Assembly: GCA_949747515.1 (NCBI GenBank)
Contig: CATKFO010000059.1
Location: 17,813-81,812 of the forward strand
DNA length: 64,000 nucleotides
From: an uncultured Eubacteriales bacterium
GTDB lineage: Bacteria; Bacillota; Clostridia; Oscillospirales; CAG-272
Direction of reading: 5' to 3'
This document shows positions 20,450 to 33,462 of this stretch, in pieces. Each line of letters starts with the position of its first letter. The first letter of the stretch is position 1. The notes beneath the pieces are model-generated. The model ran no database searches and was not told where the DNA came from. It saw only the letters and a list, made by a program, of their open reading frames with translations. Both the position numbers and the translations under genes were made by a program.

Positions 20450-21139
20450 TTACTGTATAAGTTCAAATTTGTAGCCTACGCCCCATACTGTTTTCAAGGT
20501 CCACTTATCTGAAACGCCTTCAAGTTTTTCACGAAGACGCTTTACATGTACGTCTACCGTTCTGGAGTCTCCAAGATAATCGAATCCCCATACCTTGTCC
20601 AAAAGCTGATCGCGAGTAAATACTCGATTAAAGTTAGACGCAAGGAAATAGAGAAGTTCGAGCTCTTTGGGGGGAATGTCGACTTGTTTGCCGTTCAGCT
20701 TAAGCTCATACTTTTGAAGACTTATTTCAATATTTTCAAATTTTACGACTTCGTCTTCTTTTTGGGTGTCATGAGCGGCGTATCTACGAAGAACAGCCTT
20801 GATACGCGCGGAAAGCTCTTTCATGTCGAAAGGCTTAACCACAAAGTCGTCCGCTCCAAGCTCTAACCCGAGAACTTTATCAAATACGTCCCCTTTGGCC
20901 GTGATCATAATGATTGGACGAGACGATGATTCTCTGATCTCTCGGCAAACCTGCCAGCCGTCCTTTTTAGGCAGCATGATATCCAGCAATACTAAATCCG
21001 GTTCATACATTTTGAAAAAGCTAACGCCTTCGGCGCCGTCGCCGGCCGTCTTTACTTCATACCCTTCGTTTTCAAAGTAGAGCTTAAGTAAATCGCAGAT
21101 ATTGGGATCGTCGTCAACGACGAGAATTTTTGTTCCCAT
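20450..21139 (-). CDS. OmpR-family response regulator
   Basis: Receiver domain (VDDD, LLDIMLP, TAKG) plus winged-helix C-terminus (TVWGVGYKF); AGGAGG RBS. Confidence 0.92.
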   Translation of the reverse strand: MGTKILVVDDDPNICDLLKLYFENEGYEVKTAGDGAEGVSFFKMYEPDLVLLDIMLPKKDGWQVCREIRESSSRPIIMITAKGDVFDKVLGLELGADDFVVKPFDMKELSARIKAVLRRYAAHDTQKEDEVVKFENIEISLQKYELKLNGKQVDIPPKELELLYFLASNFNRVFTRDQLLDKVWGFDYLGDSRTVDVHVKRLREKLEGVSDKWTLKTVWGVGYKFELIQ

Positions 21140-21457
21140 GATCGTACCTCCTTTTTATTTCTTATAAGCATCTTCACTATATAGATACTATTATACGATA
21201 TTACGGCGAATTTGTCAAACATTTTTGAGAATTAAGCAGATTTTTTGCTTTTTCTCTTTCTTACAATAAAATTATACGAGACAAATGTGTTTTTCTGGTG
21301 AAATCAGACTGATAATTTGGGAAAAGTAAGGAAAAACGGCTTTTAAGTAATACTGAATCTAATATCGCGTATTTTTATAAATATATGAGCGACAAATTTA
21401 TAGACGTATTTATGGACTTAATTATAATTTTATAGTTATTCATGGTGCGATCAGGTA

Positions 21458-21486
21458 TTTACAACAGGATGAAATTATTGTATAAT
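21458..21486 (+). promoter_or_regulatory. strong sigma-A type promoter now followed only by a ychF 5' remnant
   Basis: TTTACA (21458-21463), a 17-nt spacer, then TATAAT (21481-21486). Confidence 0.55.
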
Positions 21487-21574
21487 TAACTGGTATTTAT
21501 ATAAAGGCTGCGAAAAGGATAACTCCGCAGGTAAGAATTTATTTTGTAATTATTACGAAAAGGATTAAAGATAT

Positions 21575-21601
21575 ATGAAACTCGGAATAATTATATATTG
21601 A
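21575..21601 (+). pseudogene. ychF: displaced or duplicated ychF 5' end (MKLGII then stop)
   Basis: ATGAAACTCGGAATAATT matches the real ychF start ATGAAATTAGGAATAATC (32368-32385) at 15 of 18 nt. Both encode MKLGII. This frame stops after 8 codons. Confidence 0.5.
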
Positions 21602-21716
21602 CGAATTTCCATATTTTCATAAAGAATAACAAATCTGCATAAGCCCCCATGGTACAAGGAAATATTGATTTTTGCAGTTTATATATCTTGATGTTATTTA
21701 ACAAGAATCAATGTGA

Positions 21717-21737
21717 AAATGGCGTAAAAATGGCGTA
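21717..21737 (+). repeat. left copy of the terminal direct repeat (2 x ATGGCGTA)
   Basis: AAATGGCGTAAAAATGGCGTA; the partner at 32292-32313 differs by one extra A. Confidence 0.8.
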
Positions 21738-21764
21738 GACGATTTTTTTCAAAATTAAATATTG

Positions 21765-21807
21765 AAACGGTCATTCGTGTCTGAGAAAGTTGCGAATGAC
21801 CGTTTTT
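21765..21807. terminator. strong hairpin terminator at the left end of the element
   Basis: Perfect 13-bp stem, AAACGGTCATTCG (21765-21777) with CGAATGACCGTTT (21793-21805), then TTTTT on the plus strand. It also lies just downstream of the minus-strand 69-aa gene. Confidence 0.8.
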
Positions 21808-21812
21808 CATAT

Positions 21813-22022
21813 TTAAACTACCGCAGCGTTATCCGAGACTTCAAAAACATTCTCACCAACTACAAACAGGAGCGATCCTGTGGGACTGTCTTCAATCGAG
21901 ATATTACATCCTTGCAGTTCTGGAATCATTTTCAGTAAATCTACAATATCAGTCGGGGACAATATACATTCCTCTGCTAATGGGTTGCTTGAAGCAACAA
22001 TTTTACGTCTTAATCTCTTCAT
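21813..22022 (-). CDS. hypothetical protein (69 aa)
   Basis: AAGGAG RBS at good spacing; no motif recognised. Confidence 0.6.
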   Translation of the reverse strand: MKRLRRKIVASSNPLAEECILSPTDIVDLLKMIPELQGCNISIEDSPTGSLLFVVGENVFEVSDNAAVV

Positions 22023-22352
22023 AGTTAAAACTCCTTTGTGTGGATAATTGATTTGTAAAATTACAAGACATTCCTTTTCATTTGTGTTGCTCAGGTTGAA
22101 CAGCGTATTTTCTGTTTCATGTTTTCATGACGGTTTCATGAGTAACGCAGAATCAGAAAATCAAACTACATTCGGAAAACTTGTTTTCTTTATCAATAAT
22201 ATTAAAGGTTTTGAAGGCAATTTTTCCTATTTAAAGAGAACACCGTATATCACACGATATACGGCGGTTAAAGTTATTCTATATAAATTATGGCTGTTAT
22301 AATTTATCCACGTGAGAACAGGCGCAGAAAATGTTTGCGTTAGGTATAAAGG

Positions 22353-22658
22353 TTAGTCAATACCTAAGAGTATATTCACAGCCTGTTGCAGTTCCGGTTT
22401 TGCGCGGTAAGACTGTAATACCTTTCTTTCCTGCTCGGTGATTTCTCCATCCATTAGGTGAACATCCAAAAGCTCACTTGGCGATACCTGCAAGGCTCTG
22501 CATATCTCAGCGAGAATATCCGCGTCGGGTCTGTTGATACCCTGCTCCCAATTTGAAACCCTGCTGTTGCTGACTCCGATCAGCTCGGCTAATTGCTTTT
22601 GACTTAGATTTCTGTCCTCACGGTATTTGCGGATTCTGTTTCCGATTTCATATTTCAT
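22353..22658 (-). CDS. XRE-family HTH repressor (cI-like, no peptidase domain)
   Basis: LSQKQLAELIGVSNSRVSNWEQG helix-turn-helix. 101 aa. Divergent from a second HTH gene. Confidence 0.85.
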   Translation of the reverse strand: MKYEIGNRIRKYREDRNLSQKQLAELIGVSNSRVSNWEQGINRPDADILAEICRALQVSPSELLDVHLMDGEITEQERKVLQSYRAKPELQQAVNILLGID

Positions 22659-22717
22659 CCTATCACCTCACCTTGCAATAATTATACAGCATATTATCTG
22701 AAAAGTAAATAGAAAAA

Positions 22718-22792
22718 TACAGTATTTCTGTAGAAAAGCGTTGACGAAACAGTATATCTGTGATATAATGTAGAAAAATACAGAAAATCTTG
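22718..22792. promoter_or_regulatory. switch region: operators plus the rightward promoter
   Basis: TACAGTATTTCTGTA (22718-22732) and ACAGTATATCTGT (22749-22761) are palindromic and near-identical. A degenerate third copy is at 22780-22792. TTGACG (22741-22746), 17 nt, TATAAT (22764-22769) has the second operator in its spacer. Confidence 0.7.
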
Positions 22793-22811
22793 ATTGTGGA
22801 GGTGAAAAATC

Positions 22812-23036
22812 ATGAGTGTGTATGAAAAAGTGCGCGCGTATCTTGATGAAAACGGGATAAAACAAGTCGTTATTGCACAGAAAGCAGGGATATCCAATGT
22901 GACTTTCAACGCGATAATGAACGGCAAGCGGACAATGTATGCAGACGATCTGCGGGCTATCTGTCTTGCACTGAATGTCAGTCCCGAATTGTTTATTGAC
23001 GTTAAATGTCCTTGCAAAAGCGGTACTAAAGGATGA
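22812..23036 (+). CDS. XRE-family HTH protein (Cro-like)
   Basis: 74 aa with HTH segment QVVIAQKAGISNVTFNAIMNG; GGAGGTGA RBS. Confidence 0.8.
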   Translation: MSVYEKVRAYLDENGIKQVVIAQKAGISNVTFNAIMNGKRTMYADDLRAICLALNVSPELFIDVKCPCKSGTKG

Positions 23037-23142
23037 TTTCAGAGACGATATCTGATTTTATATTGCTAAACTAAAAATAACAGTTATCAATAAATATCTT
23101 TTTAATACAAAATAAGAATATTTTTTATTTAGGAGGCTGAAA

Positions 23143-24018
23143 ATGTTAACTCACTCAAACAAAGATGAAAATATTGTTATGAAGGATATCCATTGTCCTT
23201 ACTGTGGAAGTGATAACGCCTTATTACTTAATAAGACAACATCAAAAAAGTTATCACTTCAATTACCAGCCTATGGCTTAAAATTTATATTTTCTCTTTT
23301 ATATTTATCCTTTGTACAAATATGGATACATGGTTATAAACTAATTGAAGCAATAAAAGTAATTGATACTGTTACATATGGCTTTTGTCCTCATTGCGGA
23401 AACAGTTATTCAATGGCTCCACCAGATATCATAAAAGAAGAAATAAAAGAACCAAGATTTTATAAAATAAAAGATGGCAAAATAGTAATGGGTTTATGCA
23501 AAGGTATTTCCGAATATACGGGCATTTCCTTATTGTGGGTTCGCATTATGACAGTATTTTATGGATTAACAGTTATTGGTGCCATTTTATACTTTTTAAT
23601 TGGTGCTTGTCTTCCTTTTAAAGAAGAAGCCGAGGACGGTGTTGCATATAAGAAATTCTACAGGATTAATAAAGGCAAAGATATAATGGGTCTGTGTAAA
23701 GGCTTTTCTGAATATACAAGTATTCCTGTTATGTGGGTTAGAATCTTTACCGTATTGTTTAGTAGTACAATTATAGGCATTCCGCTTTATTTTATTATAT
23801 CGGCGTTTGTTCCTGTAAAAGAAAATGTTGAACAAGGTATTACACGGAAAAAGTTATATAAAATCAAAGAAGGTAAAGTCATTCTCGGACTGTGTGCAGG
23901 ATTTGCTAAGTATGCAAACATGCGGTTGTGGCTCGTTCGTTTGTTAACAATTGTTCTTGTCATTCCGTTAGCTTTGTATTGGATTATAGGAGCTATTGTG
24001 CCGACTGAGGAAAAGTAA
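23143..24018 (+). CDS. membrane protein: split zinc ribbon plus three tandem PspC domains
   Basis: CPYCG and CPHCG flank a TM helix. Three repeats follow of the pattern YKIKxGKxxxGLCxGxxxYxxxxxxxVRxxxV plus a TM helix. AGGAGG RBS. Confidence 0.8.
   Translation: MLTHSNKDENIVMKDIHCPYCGSDNALLLNKTTSKKLSLQLPAYGLKFIFSLLYLSFVQIWIHGYKLIEAIKVIDTVTYGFCPHCGNSYSMAPPDIIKEEIKEPRFYKIKDGKIVMGLCKGISEYTGISLLWVRIMTVFYGLTVIGAILYFLIGACLPFKEEAEDGVAYKKFYRINKGKDIMGLCKGFSEYTSIPVMWVRIFTVLFSSTIIGIPLYFIISAFVPVKENVEQGITRKKLYKIKEGKVILGLCAGFAKYANMRLWLVRLLTIVLVIPLALYWIIGAIVPTEEK
23455..24003 (+). repeat. three diverged in-frame tandem repeats, each encoding one PspC-type module
   Basis: Residues 105-158, 170-224 and 236-287 align with each other (nt 23455-23616, 23650-23814, 23848-24003). 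Confidence 0.75.
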
Positions 24019-24019
24019 A

Positions 24020-25549
24020 ATGCAGAATAATAAGCAGTTACCTCCTGGCTGGGGTAAAAATACAGAAAAACCCAAAAGCTGGAATACACAAAACAATAAA
24101 CTTCCAAATGATTTCAGTAATAGCCCAAAAGCCTTGGACACTAAAGAAAATAGTGACGCAGTCTTAACCAAAAATCATCAAGGAGAAATATCAAATTTTG
24201 TTCCTTCATCAGGTAAAGAAACAAAAACTCCCATAATCGAAAGTGATATTAAATCAGAGCAAGTTTCCGCTTGCTCTGATAACTTAAATATTACTAAGAG
24301 TACTAGTACAAATAAAAATGATGAACTAGGTCATTCTAATAAGAGCATTGTAAAACCGTCAGACAAAGCAATAACACTTTCAGAAAAAACGATTGATAAA
24401 AAATCTTCTCGCAAGAAAAAAGTTATCCTGTTCATAGCGATAATAATTATTGTCGTGTTGGTTTTTGTATGTGTTTTAATATCATTAAAAAGAAAAAATG
24501 ATAATCAAAATAATAGTACCGATAAAACAGAAGAATCATTTTCTACTGAAAAAGTATATACTTCGATAGTTTCCGAAGAAATAACCGAAGAAGAAACAAC
24601 AGATAATTCATCTGAAATTACTACAGAAACACCCTCAACAACGGAATTACCTGAAACTACTGAGCCAAATATAAGCTTAACTGAGTACATAGGTTTTTGG
24701 CGTAATTCAAATGATGATGAATTAACCATCAATAGTGCAGATCAAAGTTCAGTTAATTTTAGTTTGTATTTTTACCGACTAACTTCAATTGAAAATGTTG
24801 TCGCTGAACTTAGTGGCAATATAGCATCTTTCTCATATATCAGTAATGGGGAACCTTGGACGGGAGACGGTATAACTAGTGGAATATTAGAATTTAACAA
24901 GTCATCAATTACTGTGACCTTAACCGAATCTGATATTACTTATATACCTAAGGGTTACACCATAGTATTTGATATTATGGATAGTCAAAGCCGTGACGAT
25001 TATCAAACCGACGAACCGACATTTGAAGAAAATACAAGTTCATCAGAAGAACCAATCATTGAAACGGATAACAAAGTATATTGTTCTGTTTGCGGTACCG
25101 ACTGTACGAATAGAAATATGACAGATGGTATATGTGATGATTGTTATACTCATATTCCTAATGTTTACTGCCCTAATTGTGAATATGGTTTTTTCACTAC
25201 CGGAGTAGGTATAAGTGGATTTGAATGTCCAAAATGTAATTATAAATTTAATTATCCTCCAGATTCTCACTCGCAGGAGTTTTTTGAAATAAGCGGATAT
25301 TACAAAGAGCATGAAACTCTATCTAACGGAGAACACATAGATAAAAATTATGATGGAGAGCTTTATTTGTATTCAGATGGTACTGCTTATATATCATCAT
25401 CAGGATTGAGTGTTAATTTAAATTGGGATGTTGAAGTAATGTGGAATGCATCAAATCCTTACGAAAAATTTTCTTTTGCAACAGACAATGAGTACCTGAC
25501 TATATATTTACAAAATGACATCAAATGGATATTTAAAAAAATCTATTGA
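24020..25549 (+). CDS. single-pass membrane protein with a low-complexity N-terminus, Thr/Glu-rich linker and two CxxC-pair zinc knuckles
   Basis: The ATG at 24020 is 1 nt after the upstream stop, with GAGG at 24007-24010. TM encoded at nt 24422-24487. CSVCG..CDDC and CPNC..CPKC encoded at nt 25082-25240. Confidence 0.75.
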   Translation: MQNNKQLPPGWGKNTEKPKSWNTQNNKLPNDFSNSPKALDTKENSDAVLTKNHQGEISNFVPSSGKETKTPIIESDIKSEQVSACSDNLNITKSTSTNKNDELGHSNKSIVKPSDKAITLSEKTIDKKSSRKKKVILFIAIIIIVVLVFVCVLISLKRKNDNQNNSTDKTEESFSTEKVYTSIVSEEITEEETTDNSSEITTETPSTTELPETTEPNISLTEYIGFWRNSNDDELTINSADQSSVNFSLYFYRLTSIENVVAELSGNIASFSYISNGEPWTGDGITSGILEFNKSSITVTLTESDITYIPKGYTIVFDIMDSQSRDDYQTDEPTFEENTSSSEEPIIETDNKVYCSVCGTDCTNRNMTDGICDDCYTHIPNVYCPNCEYGFFTTGVGISGFECPKCNYKFNYPPDSHSQEFFEISGYYKEHETLSNGEHIDKNYDGELYLYSDGTAYISSSGLSVNLNWDVEVMWNASNPYEKFSFATDNEYLTIYLQNDIKWIFKKIY

Positions 25550-25616
25550 TATCTGTCTGTTGTTTTATCCCTATAAAAACAAACATCTCTTTCCGTTTAT
25601 AGATTTACACACCACA

Positions 25617-25652
25617 AAACAGCCGTAGTCTGCTATGATTACGGCTGTTTTC
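25617..25652. terminator. bidirectional terminator
   Basis: Perfect 11-bp stem, AAACAGCCGTA (25617-25627) with TACGGCTGTTT (25640-25650), plus a T run. Confidence 0.85.
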
Positions 25653-25700
25653 TATAAAAGATATTGGCAACACCTTTTCTTTTATATTAAAGTATGGAAT

Positions 25701-25943
25701 TTATTTTGCAAGAACCTCATAAGCAGATTTGTTCTTTGCAATGAGTCTCTTTGAAATCTCTCTTACATCTTCTTCTTTTGCTGTCTGCTCCTGCTCTGCC
25801 GCGTTAAATTCCACAACAAGATAGCGCGGCACATTGTTTTTCAAAATAATGACAGAGCCGTTTTCATCAACCATTCTTGCGACGCGTGAAAAATTTTGAT
25901 TGGCTTCCGTTATGGAAATTAAGTTATCTGTATTTACAGTCAT
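25701..25943 (-). CDS. Phd/YefM-family antitoxin-like protein (no adjacent toxin)
   Basis: The N-terminus ISITEANQNFSRVARMVDENGSVIILKNNVPRYLVV is typical of the Phd/YefM fold; 80 aa. Confidence 0.75.
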   Translation of the reverse strand: MTVNTDNLISITEANQNFSRVARMVDENGSVIILKNNVPRYLVVEFNAAEQEQTAKEEDVREISKRLIAKNKSAYEVLAK

Positions 25944-26141
25944 GATAAGCCCCCCTTTTTTATCTTCAATTATATTATATGCGATATTTAGGATAAATTC
26001 AACCTATTTCAGAAAAATTAAAAAAAATATATCAGTAATGCTGGGGTATTTCCGCAAATATTAATAAATCATTAAGTGGGGTTGTTGTTGAGTCTGATTT
26101 ATCTTATAATATTATTAGATCAAATGCGGCGGGGTGATTTC

Positions 26142-26729
26142 ATGATTTACGGATATGCAAGATGTTCTACCAATGAGAAACTACAGGATATTCAAAGACA
26201 GGTCAGAGAATTAAAACAGCACGGCGCGTCCGACGAGACGATTTATCTTGAATACGAAAGCGGAGCAAAGGAAGATCGGGCAGAGCTTAATAAACTGCTT
26301 AAAGCTATTCAGCCACATGACACGATCATTGCAACGGAAGTAAGCAGAATCACACGCAGTACAAAACAGCTTTGTGAGATTACAGAGCTTGCTAAATTAA
26401 GAAAACTGAAACTGATCCTCGGAAACTTCGTTGTAGATTGCAGTAAGGAGCTTGACCCAATGACTGAGGGAATGTTAAAAATGATGGGTGTGTTCAGTGA
26501 GATTGAGAGAAACATCACAAGTCAGCGTGTGAAAAGCGGTATGCATAATGCAAAGGCAAAAGGCAAGGCAATAGGCAGACCGAATACTACTGCCGACGAT
26601 ATACCGAGCGTATTCTACAAGCATTATCCCAAATACAAAAACGGAGAGCTGAATAAGAAGGATTTATCCCGACTGTGTTCTCTCTCCTATCCTACAGTAT
26701 ACAAATATTTAAGAATGATAGAGGGCTGA
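26142..26729 (+). CDS. small serine recombinase (resolvase/invertase type)
   Basis: MIYGYARCSTNEKLQDIQRQ catalytic N-terminus with the Ser in YARCST, and a C-terminal HTH. GGGGTGA RBS before the ATG at 26142. Confidence 0.88.
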   Translation: MIYGYARCSTNEKLQDIQRQVRELKQHGASDETIYLEYESGAKEDRAELNKLLKAIQPHDTIIATEVSRITRSTKQLCEITELAKLRKLKLILGNFVVDCSKELDPMTEGMLKMMGVFSEIERNITSQRVKSGMHNAKAKGKAIGRPNTTADDIPSVFYKHYPKYKNGELNKKDLSRLCSLSYPTVYKYLRMIEG

Positions 26730-26732
26730 AAA

Positions 26733-27185
26733 ATGAATGTGAAAATCTACTCGCGAGAAGCAATGGAAGAACTGTTGAAAGATAGTGTACTTGAAAGCAC
26801 AGCGGTTATCAGTTTCTATGATCCGCCGACCAAGAGAAATCCAAATGTAACTGAGCCTGTTGACTATACAGGAAAATGTGATCGGGTGTTCCATGTGTGC
26901 ATTAACGATATTGACATTGAGATATTAGGGGACTATGGCTTGACATATGACACATACTTTCCCGAGACTGACGAATTAGCAGAGTTTATTTACAAGGCTA
27001 AGCAGGATGGGTGTGATATTATCTGTCAATGCGAGTATGGGCAAAGCAGGAGCGCGGCGTGTGCCGCGGCGATACTGGAGCATTTCTACGGAACAGGGAT
27101 ATCTGTGTTTGCAGATTACAGGTACTATCCCAATCAGATGGTTTATCATAAGGTTTTTGACGCGTTGGGGAAAGTTAATACATAA
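26733..27185 (+). CDS. CX5R cysteine-phosphatase-fold protein (predicted)
   Basis: CEYGQSRS matches the C-x5-R-(S/T) P-loop of the PTP/DSP fold. The start is 3 nt after the recombinase stop. Confidence 0.55.
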   Translation: MNVKIYSREAMEELLKDSVLESTAVISFYDPPTKRNPNVTEPVDYTGKCDRVFHVCINDIDIEILGDYGLTYDTYFPETDELAEFIYKAKQDGCDIICQCEYGQSRSAACAAAILEHFYGTGISVFADYRYYPNQMVYHKVFDALGKVNT

Positions 27186-27192
27186 CTATGGC

Positions 27193-27230
27193 AAACAGCC
27201 GCTGAATGTTAGTGTTCAGCGGCTGTTTTC
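27193..27230. terminator. bidirectional terminator
   Basis: Perfect 14-bp stem, AAACAGCCGCTGAA (27193-27206) with TTCAGCGGCTGTTT (27215-27228), plus a T run. Confidence 0.9.
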
Positions 27231-27234
27231 TTAT

Positions 27235-27843
27235 CTATAGTATATCTTTATATGTCTTTGCCAAATCTTTCAAAAGAGTATCAATAGCATTAGAAGTTGC
27301 ATCAGATTCACAATTTGAGTTTTCCAAAATTTTAATAGGTTCGTAAGCCTTAAAAAAATCTTTTAGTGTTTTATCACCGAGATAATATAGCTCGTTGTAA
27401 TTAAATGATAATGTGACATGAGGTGAGTTAATTCCATCACCTATATCAATCTTGGGGTTAAATTTATTCAAAATAGCAAGTAGTGCATATGCGATTGGTA
27501 TATTCAACCAAACATCATTGCTATTAAGTTCTGTTCTTAAATCTATTTCATCCCCACATAACCAATCAAGCGAGACACCGAAGTATTTTGCCAAGTACTT
27601 TGCAGTATAAAGACTAGGAGCCTTTTCCCCTGTACCGTACTTGCCTATCATGGATTCATTTACTCCCGTTTCACGTGATATAGTAGCATTATTCTTTTTA
27701 ACTGATTCTTGTGCAGAGATAAATCTTTTAGAAAATTTTTTTCTTATGTTGTCTTCAGCTTCTTGTCTTTTGTTTTTTACTTTAGCATTTTCAGCTTCTT
27801 GTTTTTCTTGTCTTACTTTCAATTTTTCATAATTTGACGCCAT
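27235..27843 (-). CDS. HTH (XRE-like) regulator with N-terminal charged coiled-coil and an unknown C-terminal domain
   Basis: HTH segment NATISRETGVNESMIGKYGTG. AAAGGTGA RBS before the ATG at 27843. Divergent from the primase operon. Confidence 0.75.
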   Translation of the reverse strand: MASNYEKLKVRQEKQEAENAKVKNKRQEAEDNIRKKFSKRFISAQESVKKNNATISRETGVNESMIGKYGTGEKAPSLYTAKYLAKYFGVSLDWLCGDEIDLRTELNSNDVWLNIPIAYALLAILNKFNPKIDIGDGINSPHVTLSFNYNELYYLGDKTLKDFFKAYEPIKILENSNCESDATSNAIDTLLKDLAKTYKDIL

Positions 27844-27884
27844 GAAAATCACCTTTATATATATAATTTTTCTTTAAGTATATC

Positions 27885-27931
27885 ACACTATAGCAAACAT
27901 GTCAATGCTATAGTGTAGAAAACACACTATA
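27885..27931. promoter_or_regulatory. operator repeats of the second switch
   Basis: Perfect 10-bp inverted repeat, ACACTATAGC (27885-27894) and GCTATAGTGT (27907-27916). A third half-site ACACTATA lies at 27924-27931. Confidence 0.65.
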
Positions 27932-28162
27932 AAATATATTCTATATTATGTTTGATTTCCCGCGCGCATATAGCGTACAATATAGATACTTGGTAATAAG
28001 CGGTGTTGGGAGGGCACATAAAAGATGCCGTCAGAGTATTACCGGTACTCCGACGGCGATCATCCAGTGAAAACGAGATTATAACATAACATGCGGTTTC
28101 ACCATATTTATTATAAAACATTTGGACTGTAACCGCAAGAAAAAAGAAAGGAAAATATTATA

Positions 28163-28360
28163 ATGAATGAGTTTTTGAGTAATTTTTTTAAATCCCTTGA
28201 AAATGATCCTGACGTAAAGAAAACAACGTGGGATATACGCGAGGGCAAATATCCACAGGTCACATATGATCTCGGAGACCATATTGAAGAAGTTACAATT
28301 ATGAGGTGCAGTTCAATAGATGATATTGTAAAGGCTCTCATGGATAGTGAGGAGGAATAA
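28163..28360 (+). CDS. hypothetical protein (65 aa)
   Basis: AAAGGAAA RBS. The stop is 1 nt before the primase ATG. Confidence 0.6.
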   Translation: MNEFLSNFFKSLENDPDVKKTTWDIREGKYPQVTYDLGDHIEEVTIMRCSSIDDIVKALMDSEEE

Positions 28361-28361
28361 T

Positions 28362-30734
28362 ATGATATTAGATGAAATACTGAGTTGCTTCAATGACGTT
28401 AAGAAAAAAGACGGTGGAAAGAGATATGAAGCGCGATGTCCTGCACATGACGACAAACACCCAAGCCTATCAATATATATAAATGGCGATTGGGTAAATT
28501 TACATTGTTTTACGGGGTGTTCCGAAGAGAAAATACTCAGTTCAGTGGGATTAAAAAAATCCGATTTATTTATAGGAGCAAAGGGGGTAAGACCAATGGT
28601 AATTAAAGAAAAAATCTATAAATATCAAAAGGCTGACGGCACTCTTGCCTACACAAAAAAACGTTTGGATTATGATGACGGTAAGAAATCATTTTTCTTT
28701 AGTATGCCCGACGGAACAAAAGGATTAAAGGATACAAAACATCTCTTTTATAATCTCCCGGGGATAGACAAAGCTAAAATAATTTATTTTGCAGAAGGTG
28801 AGAAATGCGCCGACGCGATCATTGAGCAAGGCTATACAGCAACTACTCTTGACAGCGGAGCAAATTCAAAATTTTATAAAGAATATATAAAATACTTCAA
28901 AGATAAGGAAGTCATAATCATTCCTGACAATGACGAGCCGGGAATGAAGTATGCCAAAATGATTCAAAAAAATCTACCGTGGGCAGTAATTAAAGAGTTG
29001 CCGGGTCTCAAAGAAAAAGAAGATGTGTATGACTGGTTACAATCGGGACATTCAATAACCGAGATTGAAAAAATTCCTGCGACGGTTTTAGAAAATACTG
29101 ATAATGAAACTTCTGATATCTCCTTTGAAAACAGACAACAGTCTGGCATTTTACTTGATATTATCAGAAATGAAGAAACAGACTTCTTTATGGATGAAAG
29201 TAATAATGCGTTTATAGAAATACTAAATGAAGACCATAAGGAAATTTATGATATAAGTGGCAGTGACTTTAACTTGTGGGCTCAGAATGTATTCTACAAG
29301 AAGAGCAAAAAGGCAATCTGCAAAGACAGTCTTGCGAGAGCAATAGACATTCTGATTGCAGATACAAAATTTGGCAACAAGCAAAAATATATATTGTCAA
29401 ATCGTGTTGCAAAAAGCGGAAATGATTTTTGGTTTGACCTCTCAAATGATAAGTGGTCGGCAATCAGAACAAATTCCGATGGATGGGCATTGATTAAGGA
29501 CGTTCCGAAGCTGTTTTGCAGATATAATCATCAGGCGGCGCAGACGCTTCCGCAGAGCGGCGGGAATATTATGGAAATATTTAAATATGTAAACATGAGC
29601 GGATATCAAACCTTATTCCTTTGTTGGCTTGTCTCATGCTATGTGCCTGATATACCACACCCTATGCCGATTTTTTACGGCGAGAAGGGCGCGGCGAAAA
29701 GCACAGCTTGTGAGCTGTTGAAAAAGCTAATTGATCCGTCATTGATGGATACAGTATCATTAAGTAAAGATGAAAGGACGCTTGTAGTCAATTTACAACA
29801 TCATTATTTTCTACCGTTTGACAATGTATCTGCCATCAATAATGATACCAGCGACATATTGTGCCGAGCGATTACAGGCGGGGCAGTTCAGCAGAGAAAA
29901 TTACATACTAATGGTGAAGATTATATTTTCAAATTTAAAAGGTGTTTAGCTATAAATGGCATTAACAATGTTGCGAATCGTTCAGACCTTCTTGACCGTT
30001 CCATACTGTTTGAGTTGGAGCGTGTGCCCGAAGAAAAGCGTAAGGAAGTACAGGAAATTAAAAATACGTTTGAAGCTGACAGACCTTATCTATTGGGAGC
30101 CATATTTGATATTCTGTCAAAGGCAATGGCAATACATCCAACTGTAAAATTGGACATGCTTCCGCGAATGGCTGATTTCTGTCGTTGGGGGTATGCTATT
30201 GCAGAAGCAATAGGAAATCATGGCGATAGATTTTTACAAGAGTATAAATCTAATCAGGAAATACAGAATACCGAAGCAGTTAACGCGGATATGGTAGCCT
30301 TTCTGATAGTTGAATTTATGAGACACCAAAGAGATTGGTCGGGACGAGTATCTAAGCTTTACAGTGAATTGAAAAATGAAGCTGAAAGGCAAGGCATAAA
30401 TCCCAACAGCAAAAATATACCACAATCTCCTAATAATCTATCAAGACGAATAAAAGCTGTCAAGAGCAATCTTGAAAAGGTGGGTATCACATTTGAATTT
30501 GACACTACAAGATCAGACGGCACATACATCATACTTAAAAATACAATTTTATCTCCATTAGCTTCATGCCATGTGAATCCATACCAAGTTCTGGAGGATT
30601 CAAGCGAAATAGGCAATGGTGACGGCAATGGAGATAGTTCATTCACATCGGAAGCATCACCACTCCAAACTACCTTTAACAGCAATGACAATGGCGATAA
30701 TGAAGATGATGAAGATGAAAATGTAATATTTTAA
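28362..30734 (+). CDS. bifunctional DNA primase / P-loop helicase-like replication protein
   Basis: Zinc motif CPAHDDKHPS..HCFTGC, Toprim-like FAEGEKCADA and IIIPDNDEPG, Walker A GEKGAAKST, and an acidic tail. GAGGAGG RBS before the ATG at 28362. Confidence 0.85.
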   Translation: MILDEILSCFNDVKKKDGGKRYEARCPAHDDKHPSLSIYINGDWVNLHCFTGCSEEKILSSVGLKKSDLFIGAKGVRPMVIKEKIYKYQKADGTLAYTKKRLDYDDGKKSFFFSMPDGTKGLKDTKHLFYNLPGIDKAKIIYFAEGEKCADAIIEQGYTATTLDSGANSKFYKEYIKYFKDKEVIIIPDNDEPGMKYAKMIQKNLPWAVIKELPGLKEKEDVYDWLQSGHSITEIEKIPATVLENTDNETSDISFENRQQSGILLDIIRNEETDFFMDESNNAFIEILNEDHKEIYDISGSDFNLWAQNVFYKKSKKAICKDSLARAIDILIADTKFGNKQKYILSNRVAKSGNDFWFDLSNDKWSAIRTNSDGWALIKDVPKLFCRYNHQAAQTLPQSGGNIMEIFKYVNMSGYQTLFLCWLVSCYVPDIPHPMPIFYGEKGAAKSTACELLKKLIDPSLMDTVSLSKDERTLVVNLQHHYFLPFDNVSAINNDTSDILCRAITGGAVQQRKLHTNGEDYIFKFKRCLAINGINNVANRSDLLDRSILFELERVPEEKRKEVQEIKNTFEADRPYLLGAIFDILSKAMAIHPTVKLDMLPRMADFCRWGYAIAEAIGNHGDRFLQEYKSNQEIQNTEAVNADMVAFLIVEFMRHQRDWSGRVSKLYSELKNEAERQGINPNSKNIPQSPNNLSRRIKAVKSNLEKVGITFEFDTTRSDGTYIILKNTILSPLASCHVNPYQVLEDSSEIGNGDGNGDSSFTSEASPLQTTFNSNDNGDNEDDEDENVIF

Positions 30735-30748
30735 TACGGAGGCTATAT

Positions 30749-30952
30749 ATGAACAAAGAAATAAGTATTCCAATTAATCAAAAGGCTTTACTTTCAATTA
30801 GAGAGGCGTCGGAGTATACCAACATAGGTATTAATAAAATTGACCGTATGCTCAGGACTCCTAATTGTCCGTTTGTACTTTATGTAGGTACAAAGAAGCT
30901 TGTTAAACGTAAGGAATTTGAAAAGTTTCTTGATAATCAGTTGGTTATCTGA
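30749..30952 (+). CDS. xis: excisionase-family DNA-binding protein
   Basis: 67 aa; LLSIREASEYTNIGINKIDRML HTH typical of small excisionases. GGAGG RBS. Lies directly upstream of int. Confidence 0.8.
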   Translation: MNKEISIPINQKALLSIREASEYTNIGINKIDRMLRTPNCPFVLYVGTKKLVKRKEFEKFLDNQLVI

Positions 30953-31003
30953 CGTTTAAAAGATTTTTAGTAATTATAGTAAGAAAATTTATTAAAACCA
31001 TTG

Positions 31004-31051
31004 AGAGAAAAGAGCTTTTATGATATAATAACATGTCAGGCTCTTTTCTCT
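31004..31051 (+). promoter_or_regulatory. 12-bp perfect inverted repeat bracketing an extended -10 element upstream of int
   Basis: AGAGAAAAGAGC (31004-31015) and GCTCTTTTCTCT (31040-31051). TGATATAAT at 31021-31029 lies between the arms. Confidence 0.5.
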
Positions 31052-31073
31052 TCTACTCAGAAAGGAGCTTTAC

Positions 31074-32270
31074 ATGGGCAAGGATTTAAAAGGCAGAGAA
31101 ATTGGAAAGGGACTTTCACAGCGCAAGGACAAGAAGTATTCTGCAAGATATGTAACGAAAAGCGGAAGACGGCTTGAAAAATATTTTAGCACACTTCCCG
31201 AAGCCCGAAATTGGCTTGCAGATTCTCAATATGAAGATTTATACGGTACAACGGGACTTACTTCTACAGTCAGCGTAGACACGTGGTTTAATTACTGGTA
31301 TAATAACTTAATAGTTGATTTATCTCCTAATACAAGACGGAATTATAAGGAGCGATACGAAAGAAATATTCAGCCTGCTATAGGCAGAATGTGTATATCA
31401 GACGTTAAGCCAATGCACTGCAAAATGATACTTAACAACATGTCGAAGGACTATGCAGGCTCTACAATCCGTCAGACATATATAGCTATGGGAACAATGT
31501 TCCGATCTGCCGTTATGAATGATGTAATCCGAAAACATCCTATGGACGGTGTGAAATCCACAAAACCCGTAAGAGCGCCCAGCGACCATAGAGTATTGAC
31601 CGTAGAAGAACAGAAAAAGTTTCTTAAAGTTGCAAAATCATCACATAATTATTATCAGTATGCTTTGGCATTGGAAACAGGACTGAGAACAGGTGAAATA
31701 ATTGGTCTTACTTGGGATGCGGTTGATTTAAAAAATAAAGCTCTTACTGTTAATAAAACTCTTGAGTTCAGACACAATCAGCATACATGGCGGGCTGGTC
31801 CTCCTAAGACGCGGACAAGCTACAGAACAATTCCTCTTACAAACAGAGCTTATAACTTATTTCTGGAGCTTAAAGAAATGCGTAAGTCTCAGAAATTATC
31901 TGAGAATTTATCACAAATGCTGACATACACCGACAGGCGTACAGGGCAAAAGTCAAGTCTTATAATGCGCGATTTGGTATTTATAAATTTCAGAACTGGA
32001 ATGCCTGCAAAAAACAGTTCTTATGACACCCATATTTATAAGCTGTGCGAGACGGCGGGAATACCTCCGTTTTCAATGCACACATTAAGACATACATATG
32101 CAACGAGGGCGATTGAAAGCGGCGTACAGCCAAAAGTTCTTCAAAAACTTTTAGGTCATGCAAGCATTCAAACTACAATGGATACATATGTTCATGTAAC
32201 GGATGATTCCATGAATAACGCTATCAGACAGTTTGAATTAAACAACGCGGCAAACAATGATTTACCCTGA
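31074..32270 (+). CDS. int: tyrosine-type site-specific integrase
   Basis: Catalytic C-terminus HTLRHTYAT ... LGHASIQTTMDTYVHV. The N-terminal basic segment resembles arm-binding domains. AAAGGAG RBS. Confidence 0.93.
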   Translation: MGKDLKGREIGKGLSQRKDKKYSARYVTKSGRRLEKYFSTLPEARNWLADSQYEDLYGTTGLTSTVSVDTWFNYWYNNLIVDLSPNTRRNYKERYERNIQPAIGRMCISDVKPMHCKMILNNMSKDYAGSTIRQTYIAMGTMFRSAVMNDVIRKHPMDGVKSTKPVRAPSDHRVLTVEEQKKFLKVAKSSHNYYQYALALETGLRTGEIIGLTWDAVDLKNKALTVNKTLEFRHNQHTWRAGPPKTRTSYRTIPLTNRAYNLFLELKEMRKSQKLSENLSQMLTYTDRRTGQKSSLIMRDLVFINFRTGMPAKNSSYDTHIYKLCETAGIPPFSMHTLRHTYATRAIESGVQPKVLQKLLGHASIQTTMDTYVHVTDDSMNNAIRQFELNNAANNDLP

Positions 32271-32291
32271 TTTATGCCTGTTTTGTAATCC

Positions 32292-32313
32292 AAATGGCGT
32301 AAAAAATGGCGTA
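32292..32313 (+). repeat. right copy of the terminal direct repeat
   Basis: AAATGGCGTAAAAAATGGCGTA; matches 21717-21737 except for one extra A. Confidence 0.8.
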
Positions 32314-32367
32314 AAATAAATTTGAAACCATTAAAAACCCCTTAAAATAAAGGAGATTTGAAAATAA

Positions 32368-33462
32368 ATGAAATTAGGAATAATCGGCCTGCCCAACGTA
32401 GGAAAAAGCACGTTATTTAACGCTATAACAGGAGCTGGAGCCGCCAGTGCCAATTATCCGTTTTGTACTATAGACCCCAACATAGGCATAGTGCAAGTGC
32501 CGGACAAGCGTCTTGATATACTTCGAGATATGTATTCGCCACAGCTCTATACTCCTGCGACTGTTGAATTTGTCGATATTGCCGGACTTGTTCGCGGGGC
32601 TTCAAAAGGAGAAGGTCTTGGAAACAAATTTCTTTCTCATATTCGAGACGTCGACGCCGTCGTACATGTGCTGAGATGCTTTGAAGACGGAGATATTATT
32701 CACGTAGACGGATCAGTAGACCCTATGAGAGATCTTGAGACTATAAATCTCGAGCTTATATTTTCTGATATCGAAACTCTTGATCGGCGTATAGCAAAAA
32801 CGGAAAAACTTTTAAAGGGAGATAAGTCTTTAGCTTTTCAGCTTGAAACTCTAAAAAAAGTAAAAAACTCGCTTGAAGATGGAATTACCGCAAGAGCTAT
32901 AGGACTTTCCGAGGAGGAGAATGAAATTATATCGGATGTGGAGCTTCTTACGCTAAAGCCGGTTATATATGTCGCGAATGTTTCAGAGAGCGAGGCTTCG
33001 GGAGTCAGTGAAACAAATGAATATTATAAAAAGGTAAAAGATGCGGCTGAATCCGAGGGAGCTGAGGTTATACCGGTATGCTGCGGTATTGAAGCGGAGA
33101 TAGCGGAGCTTGATCCGGAAGAAAAAGAAATGTTCCTTGAGGAGATGGGAATAAAAGAGAGCGGACTTGACAGACTTATAACGGCGAGCTATTCGCTGCT
33201 TGGCTACATAAGCTATCTTACCGCTGGACCAAAGGAGGTCAGGGCTTGGCCGATAGTGAAGGGAACTAAAGCCCCTCAGGCAGCCGGAAAGATACATAGT
33301 GATTTTGAACGAGGATTCATACGCGCTGAAATCGTCTCTTTTGAAGATTTAGTTGATTGCGGTTCTATGAACGCGGCTAAGGAAAAAGGCTTGCTTAGAA
33401 GCGAGGGCAAGGAGTATGTTATTCGCGACGGAGACGTAGTTTTGTTTAGATTTAACGTGTAG
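32368..33462 (+). CDS. ychF: redox-regulated ATPase YchF
   Basis: MKLGIIGLPNVGKSTLFNA P-loop N-terminus and a TGS-like C-terminus. Confidence 0.95.
   Translation: MKLGIIGLPNVGKSTLFNAITGAGAASANYPFCTIDPNIGIVQVPDKRLDILRDMYSPQLYTPATVEFVDIAGLVRGASKGEGLGNKFLSHIRDVDAVVHVLRCFEDGDIIHVDGSVDPMRDLETINLELIFSDIETLDRRIAKTEKLLKGDKSLAFQLETLKKVKNSLEDGITARAIGLSEEENEIISDVELLTLKPVIYVANVSESEASGVSETNEYYKKVKDAAESEGAEVIPVCCGIEAEIAELDPEEKEMFLEEMGIKESGLDRLITASYSLLGYISYLTAGPKEVRAWPIVKGTKAPQAAGKIHSDFERGFIRAEIVSFEDLVDCGSMNAAKEKGLLRSEGKEYVIRDGDVVLFRFNV

Follow-up and report, generated by a model that had tools for sequence, protein, structure and literature searches.

The 64-kb stretch of clostridial DNA considered here (hereafter, the window) carries, between an OmpR-type response regulator gene and an intact ychF, a block of approximately 10.8 kb having the gene content of a small integrative element (table 1). 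A histidine kinase gene accompanies that of the response regulator on the left side of the block, and the product of the ychF gene on its right side is recognised by the NCBIfam model TIGR00092, 'redox-regulated ATPase YchF', with E = 8.5e-146 and 485.8 bits against a cut-off of 279.2. Within the block we find two pairs of helix-turn-helix repressors, a PspC-domain membrane protein with its partner, a serine resolvase and a primase-like protein of 795 residues, together with an excisionase and a tyrosine integrase. Among solved structures, the Tn1549 enzyme comes nearest to the integrase (6EMY, E = 3.5e-21), and the catalytic-domain stretches TGLR, HxLRHT and GH...Y are visible in the alignment to it; about 90 residues lie N-terminal to the aligned region, and no arm-binding domain of Tn916 type was among the sequence matches of the integrase to solved structures. 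When the open reading frames of 21592-32367 were searched with Pfam and PHROGs, no conjugation module (relaxase, coupling protein, type IV secretion) was found, and no packaging gene (terminase small subunit, capsid) was recognised in the same reading frames. From the comparison with PICI-like elements, the integrase, the helix-turn-helix repressors and the primase-like protein are present.

Table 1. Position of genes and sequence features at the ychF locus of the window
Feature	Position	Strand	Evidence and remarks
OmpR-type response regulator gene	20450..21139	-	Pfam Response_reg and Trans_reg_C; considered the ancestral divergent neighbour of ychF, marking the host left flank
Native ychF promoter TTTACA-17-TATAAT, now severed from ychF	21458..21486	+	11/12 consensus positions
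Native ychF ribosome-binding site AAAGGA	21559..21564	+	10 nt before the ATG of the remnant; position shared with congeners
Remnant ORF MKLGIIIY-stop	21575..21601	+	Native ychF codons 1-6 fused to the element left end
attL core, 17 nt, ATGAAACTCGGAATAAT	21575..21591	+	15/17 match to the attR core
Integrative element, ~10.8 kb	21592..32367		Helix-turn-helix repressors, PspC protein, resolvase, primase-like protein, xis, int
Element left end, beginning with TATATATTGACGAATTTCCATA	21592..21718	+	Homologous to left ends in unrelated hosts; DNA left of the ATG unconserved
Left ATGGCGTA pair	21719..21737	+	Putative arm-type integrase-binding sites; 144 nt after the core ATG
Hairpin, 13-bp stem and T run (TTTTT)	21765..21807	+	-28.6 kcal/mol, z = -7.9
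xis, Tn916-type excisionase	30749..30952	+	Pfam PF09035 Tn916-Xis, E = 7.6e-28; PHROG excisionase family, E = 1e-17
Integrase promoter TTGAGA-17-TATAAT, TG before the -10 box	31001..31029	+	11/12 consensus positions
Tyrosine integrase (int), 398 aa	31074..32270	+	Pfam Phage_integrase (PF00589, E = 3.8e-28), SAM_3, Int_M
Right ATGGCGTA pair	32294..32313	+	Putative arm-type sites; 55-74 nt upstream of the ychF ATG; related elements alike
Element-borne leader, ribosome-binding site AGGAG at 32351-32355	32314..32367	+	Motif conserved among elements
attR core, 17 nt, ATGAAATTAGGAATAAT	32368..32384	+	ATGAAATTA element-derived, GGAATAAT common to both cores
ychF, intact, 364 aa	32368..33462	+	First codons from the element, remainder from the host

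The repeated start of ychF and the ends of the element

The start of ychF occurs twice in the window. As the original prediction had pointed out, ATGAAACTCGGAATAATT at 21575-21592 and ATGAAATTAGGAATAATC at 32368-32385 are identical at 15 of 18 positions and both encode MKLGII, the left copy continuing with IY before a stop that ends at 21601. The likeness between the two sites extends also 5' of the ATG, with 22 identical positions out of 27 (repeat D11). On both strands of the window, a search allowing up to three mismatches returned the two ychF-start sites and no others. Could this simply be a chance likeness between an AT-rich spacer and an AT-rich gene start? The match is indeed short (18 nt) and its sequence is AT-rich, but shuffled sequence gives an expectation of 0.28 matches per 128 kb searched, which corresponds to approximately 0.001 for the 577-nt spacer on one strand. 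Moreover, the match lies exactly where the left core lies in 15 other elements, at an equal distance from their arm repeats. A fortuitous resemblance has thus a practically negligible probability, as had been anticipated.

Closer definition of the core comes from the bases that differ between its two copies. Position 18 is T on the left, where it is the first base of the element, as in the sequence TATAAATTGAC of related elements, and C on the right, where it belongs to host ychF; the core is therefore of 17 nt, so that the proposal of a recombination within an 18-nt duplication is correct as to place but not as to length. In six of six element pairs, that of the window and five others, the identity between attL and attR cores stops at position 16 or 17. 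The two mismatches lying inside the core, at positions 7 and 9, are of host type at attL and of element type at attR, which would confine the exchange to positions 10-17; on this pattern, the crossover is placed inside GGAATAAT, at 21584-21591. The overlap of tyrosine recombinases is typically of 6-8 bp, and the GGAATAAT stretch is consistent with this in size. The exchange point may vary, or the crossover may produce mismatched duplex DNA that is repaired either way, because in the congener G010 a leader of element type is joined to a start of native type, ATGAAACTCGG, and the integrase-adjacent locus L101 presents the same combination.

To see how general this arrangement is, the integrase was used for scanning GTDB genomes, which yielded 80 loci at 63-82% identity in Oscillospiraceae, Lachnospiraceae, Ruminococcus, Enterocloster, Flavonifractor, Gemmiger and other hosts. 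The start of ychF is found about 100 nt downstream of int in 64 of these 80 loci, most of the others being contig ends or tandem junctions; by this genomic association, the ychF start is shown to be the target of the integrase family. Six elements with both ends available, namely that of the window and those of L040, L041, L047, L087 and L112, share a common layout. On the left, an unrelated host flank is followed by the core, a TATAAATTGAC-like sequence, approximately 125 nt and two arm repeats; on the right, int is followed by two arm repeats, a leader of approximately 55 nt, the core and host ychF. Perfect repeats of 16-21 nt are present at the same place at both ends of the five related elements. 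Scanning with a pattern formed by the core plus TATAWATTGAC gave 12 more left junctions, two of them duplicates of L040 and L041 and the other 10, from Lachnospiraceae genomes, being new; in all 12 the host flanks left of the ATG are unrelated and the sequence to its right is conserved. This brings to 16 the independent left junctions, including the six of the two-ended elements, and in 15 of them arm repeats lie about 145 nt inward.

The position of these repeats is crucial for another reading of the locus. The longest near-perfect direct repeat near both ends of the element is ATGGCGTAAAA(A)ATGGCGTA, and one might consequently take the ATGGCGTA tandem repeat as the att core of an element spanning approximately 21717-32313, in which case the MKLGII copy would be a host relic or a duplication unrelated to the insertion. 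The occurrence of one ATGGCGTA upstream of ychF in G010, where no integrase is present, could be viewed in the same way, as an empty site joining at ATGGCGTA. This possibility for G010 is ruled out, since its ATGGCGTA is accompanied by the integrase promoter of the element and so constitutes an element relic. Furthermore, a core at ATGGCGTA would turn 21592-21718 and 32314-32367 into host DNA, yet both segments are conserved among elements of unrelated hosts, and the native spacers of element-free congeners have neither ATGGCGTA nor a second ychF start. The distance that separates the repeats from the ychF-start core is also constant in 15 of the 16 left junctions; for example, the left pair is 142-145 nt from the core ATG in L040, L041, L087 and L112, and nine of the 10 new junctions have arm repeats of different sequence, AATTGGTACGT, at that same distance. 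Among the integrase loci listed, the sequence of the repeats differs by integrase-identity group (ATGGCGTA, TTGGTGCGG, ATGGTACAGTA, ATGGTGTA, ATGGGGGTA and others), whereas the core is constant; elements read at both ends have the same arm repeat at both. A junction at the ATGGCGTA repeats was what the original prediction had set against itself, and the 16 left junctions begin instead at the ychF-start core. It is thus very improbable that the repeats are the core. Given their fixed distance from the core in other elements, the ATGGCGTA pairs are placed inside the element and not in the att core; they behave as expected of arm-type sites and would bind the integrase in this capacity.

Taken together, these comparisons indicate that a site-specific element of approximately 10.8 kb, equipped with an integrase and an excisionase of Tn916/Tn1549 type, has very probably used the initial 17 nt of ychF as its recombination site, with attL at 21575. 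The element may still be able to excise. The predicted circle would contain the leader, ATGAAATTAGGAATAAT and then TATATATTGACG, and the predicted restored attB would read ATGAAACTCGGAATAATCGGCCTG.

The host side of the left junction

If the element has entered the start of ychF, the DNA on the left of the core should be the native upstream region of this gene. Orthologues of the response regulator with 88-94% identity adjoin ychF divergently in eight species of the genus, with spacers of 275-325 nt, and these loci provide an empty site at the genus level, with the regulator gene next to ychF and a colinear spacer between them. We aligned with MAFFT the spacers of these eight congeners and the window sequence 21140-21591 joined to host ychF from 32385. 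The alignment is colinear throughout, for the regulator promoter, a pair of TGTGA boxes, the ychF promoter, the ribosome-binding site and the ATG all align, and the orphan promoter of the window falls on the ychF promoters of the eight congeners. This evidence needs a qualification with respect to the method, since a BLAST search of the 581-nt spacer against 40 relatives gave no meaningful match because the intergenic DNA is too diverged; the case for a homologous left flank is based on synteny and the MAFFT alignment. The codons of the left copy are also of native type: its start, ATGAAACTCGG, in which Leu is encoded by CTC, is the commonest among 27 integrase-less relatives of the genus and order (10 of 27).

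Synteny, colinear spacers and the CTC start thus agree with the claim that the native promoter and first codons of ychF have been left at attL, and the alignment with element-free ychF loci, originally suggested as a check, joins the left flank directly to ychF in the eight congeners. In none of the element-free relatives is there an additional MKLGII remnant, the other finding that the original prediction had regarded as contrary to it.

A more complicated origin deserves consideration, namely that 21140-21591 is the right-end relic of an older element, displaced by a second integration. The spacer of the window is approximately 110-160 nt longer than those of the congeners, and relics of the integrase promoter, arm repeat and leader do flank left junctions in other genomes. 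In L122, L127 and L131, the region of about 150 nt upstream of the core has a promoter similar to that of the integrase, arm-type repeats and a leader of element type, without int; these seem to be older relics that a later insertion into the same core has displaced. The flank of the window, however, is colinear with native spacers including both the regulator promoter and the ychF promoter, contains no arm-type repeat and, by eye, is unlike either the integrase promoter or the element leader, while its start codons have the CTC of integrase-less genes and not the TTA of elements. A displaced relic in the window would therefore be a most unlikely event, and we retain the native upstream region of ychF as the identity of the left flank.

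At the level of the species, two metagenome scans, which used respectively the host side of attL and the predicted attB, gave 0 matches to an empty site, and a scan of viral contigs for the junction pattern also gave 0 matches. Exact-protein look-ups retrieved the response regulator only on a Logan contig of 1,083 bp, which ends near window position 21480 and so before the junction; the YchF protein of the window was not on record.

Two minor features of the native spacer can be added. Between the regulator and ychF promoters there are conserved TGTG(A) boxes, at 21290-21330 in the window and in the eight congener spacers, which may be autoregulatory binding sites for the response regulator. 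A small hairpin, CTGCG...CGCAG, is present at 21508-21530 in the orphaned native leader of ychF; the congeners L006, L010, L013 and L015 have a short hairpin in their ychF leader too, with different sequence.

The new leader of ychF and its transcription

On the right side of the element, the arm repeats are separated from the ATG by 55 nt that carry a leader motif, gaaac..cccc..aaataaaggaga, which is conserved in elements of different hosts and absent from the ychF leaders of integrase-less genomes. The start codons follow the same partition: ATGAAATTAGG, in which Leu is encoded by TTA, is found in 51 of 64 integrase-adjacent ychF genes versus one of the 27 integrase-less relatives, and this sole exception lies 107 nt from a contig end. 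Judging from such a distribution, the TTA codon at attR is a signature of the element. By these comparisons the right leader and the start of ychF are shown to be of element derivation, with the YchF protein remaining unchanged; the element would thus give a new ribosome-binding site and start at attR, as had been proposed.

What happens to this right end when the element is no longer there? The congener G010 (L035, G010:C19, 17486-17617) has no integrase upstream of ychF, but the gene is preceded by 50 nt with 88% identity to the integrase promoter (window 30984-31032) and by one ATGGCGTA. A stretch of 42 nt comprising the leader and ATGAAA is identical to that of the window and lies directly 5' of ychF, whereas most synonymous sites differ between the coding sequences of the two ychF genes. 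G010 would then be a relic in which int has been lost and the promoter and leader of the element now serve ychF. The usual synteny of ychF with the response-regulator gene is lost in G010. Fragments of ychF in G005 and G013 were considered as further remnants and discarded, for they are just contig breaks inside the gene.

The transcription signals of the left end, i.e. the orphan promoter, the AAAGGA sequence and the 13-bp hairpin, are where the original prediction had located them and have the strength reported in table 1. That the orphan promoter now drives nothing is valid only with regard to ychF, from which it is severed, because it would still drive the 8-codon ORF and read into the element up to the hairpin. 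This hairpin is probably a terminator stopping such transcripts; each of the six elements examined has a strong hairpin 170-270 nt inward of its left core, in most cases followed by a T run. A converging ORF of 69 aa on the minus strand (21813-22022) also ends at the hairpin of the window, and the two roles are indistinguishable.

At the opposite end, the 97-nt spacer between int and ychF has no consensus promoter and no terminator, and the claim of a promoter supplied by the element depends consequently on read-through from the integrase promoter, which by eye is kept upstream of int in most of 78 related loci. The sequence TTGAAA-15-TAAAAT was evaluated as a promoter within the spacer and rejected, for its spacing is poor and it would place the transcript start at the ribosome-binding site or beyond it. 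The -10 box of the integrase promoter is flanked by an inverted repeat, GAGAGAAAAGAGC (31003-31015) and GCTCTTTTCTCTT (31040-31052), and related elements have one of different sequence at the same place, for instance AGCCAATGC and GCATTGGCT in L077. This repeat might act as operator or attenuator on int and, via read-through, on ychF.

The history of the locus that we propose can be outlined as follows. The ancestral order would have been that of the congeners, with the response-regulator gene on the minus strand, a spacer containing the native promoter and ribosome-binding site, and ychF. Strand exchange within GGAATAAT, i.e. core positions 10-17, would then have left at attL the promoter, the ribosome-binding site and the codons ATGAAACTC of the host, fused to element DNA in the 8-codon ORF, and transcripts from the orphan promoter would enter the left arm of the element, most likely ending at the hairpin. 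At attR, the order would have become integrase promoter, int, two ATGGCGTA, leader with its ribosome-binding site, ATGAAATTA and then host ychF, which would resume from about codon 4-6 and encode the same protein, being now transcribed, most likely, by read-through from the integrase promoter. In functional terms, one may go a step further and imagine a reversible switch comparable to that of SpyCI in mutL, whereby integration would put ychF under the integrase promoter and excision would restore native control, decay as in G010 would fix the cassette of promoter, arm repeat and leader, and the family would drive a repeated turnover of ychF promoters in gut Clostridia. We consider this extension speculative and rather unlikely as a whole.

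Precedents, implications and spread of the family

Integration at the 5' end of a gene with restoration of the gene is already known, and the present case is well supported, and useful for annotation, without being mechanistically surprising. Elements specific for dusA, as well as SXT at prfC, insert into the 5' end of their target and provide it with new first codons and a new promoter (PMC8409611), the supply of the promoter having been shown experimentally for IMEVchUSA3 and SXT (Durand et al. 2021, PMC8409611). The element of the window resembles both the dusA-specific elements (Farrugia et al. 2015), including IMEVchUSA3, and SXT in having a tyrosine integrase that acts at the 5' coding end, where the frame is restored by codons of the element. 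It differs from them in its target, ychF, and in its hosts, which are Clostridia instead of Proteobacteria; moreover, it has an integrase of Tn916 type with an excisionase, whereas dusA elements have an integrase of dusA type with RdfN. The extent of the replacement is different too, since 3-6 codons would be exchanged here without altering the protein, while IMEVchUSA3 changes 35 residues of DusA (PMC8409611). Promoter supply, measured for IMEVchUSA3 and SXT, is in the window deduced from the arrangement of the signals.

Among Gram-positive bacteria, streptococcal conjugative elements are integrated at the 5' end of rbgA, ftsK and ebfC, including Tn5253 at rbgA (Ambroset et al. 2016, PMC4701971); they leave the N-terminus unaltered, and some of them replace the upstream region including the promoter (PMC4701971). 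These elements and SpyCI at mutL are therefore similar to ours in combining 5'-end insertion with conservation of the N-terminus, and rbgA and ychF both encode ribosome-associated P-loop NTPases. The streptococcal elements, however, belong to another integrase clade, have other targets and, unlike the element of the window, possess a conjugation module. For the SpyCI island, excision dependent on growth phase has been described.

The relationship with Tn916 and Tn1549 is closest for the recombination enzymes: the integrase of Tn1549 is the nearest one of solved structure, xis of Tn916 type lies immediately upstream of int, and direct repeats near both ends occupy the places expected for arm-type sites. 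Tn916 and Tn1549 insert at many AT-rich sites with variable coupling sequences. In contrast, the family of the window is site-specific, with 64 of 80 loci at ychF, and its element in the window has no conjugation genes.

The ychF gene or its upstream region is already on record as an attachment locus. PhiBM6001.4, a pneumococcal satellite prophage, lies upstream of ychF, in an intergenic position according to its description and with an att site of 26 bp, and pipolins at ychF use large serine recombinases, unlike the Tn916-type integrase of the window. Neither has been reported as a Tn916-type exchange within the region of the ychF start codon, and in the literature searched we found no description of a Tn916-type integrase family exchanging within the start of ychF. 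The combination of this target with this integrase group is thus absent from the searched literature, the closest precedents being the 5'-end integrations at dusA, prfC and rbgA.

Several implications follow. The ends are fixed for the element of the window and, by extension, for a large integrase family in gut and rumen Clostridia, for which pipelines relying on the longest flanking direct repeat would set the ends too far inward, by approximately 125 nt on the left and 55 nt on the right. The core lies within the codons for the conserved N-terminus of YchF (MKLGI[IV]G), and this offers a ready explanation for the presence of the same integrase family in many genera. Integration would put new regulatory DNA, both promoter and leader, in front of the gene for a universally conserved, stress-related ATPase, and relics of this replacement outlast the loss of the integrase; a core gene rewired by mobile DNA is thereby available as a concrete, testable example. 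Genetic work on these poorly tractable bacteria could also profit from the integrase, whose attB is conserved in many Clostridia.

The downstream side of int provides additional observations on how the family spreads. In eight loci (L052, L053, L064, L068, L077, L082, L106 and L114), the sequence switches to the left end of a next element right after ATGAAATTAGGTATCG, instead of continuing with ychF, and these element-to-element junctions would be of attP type or belong to tandem arrays. Some of the loci join elements with different types of arm repeat, suggesting that unlike elements accumulate in tandem; L064 and L068 join elements of one type, and may represent either tandem copies or a circle captured in the assembly. 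Across L063-L076, the 115 nt upstream of int are identical, as is the 125-nt spacer between int and ychF in the seven loci with a mapped ychF start (L063, L065, L066, L067, L071, L072 and L076). Since the genome labels of L063-L076 include Enterocloster, Oscillibacter, Flavonifractor, Anaerotruncus and Lachnospira, identity of the DNA flanking int suggests a very recent spread of one element between genera. In L069 and L073, the sequence after int diverges from ychF already past ATGAAATTAG (position 10) and continues with unrelated DNA, as may occur at a secondary site or after a rearrangement.
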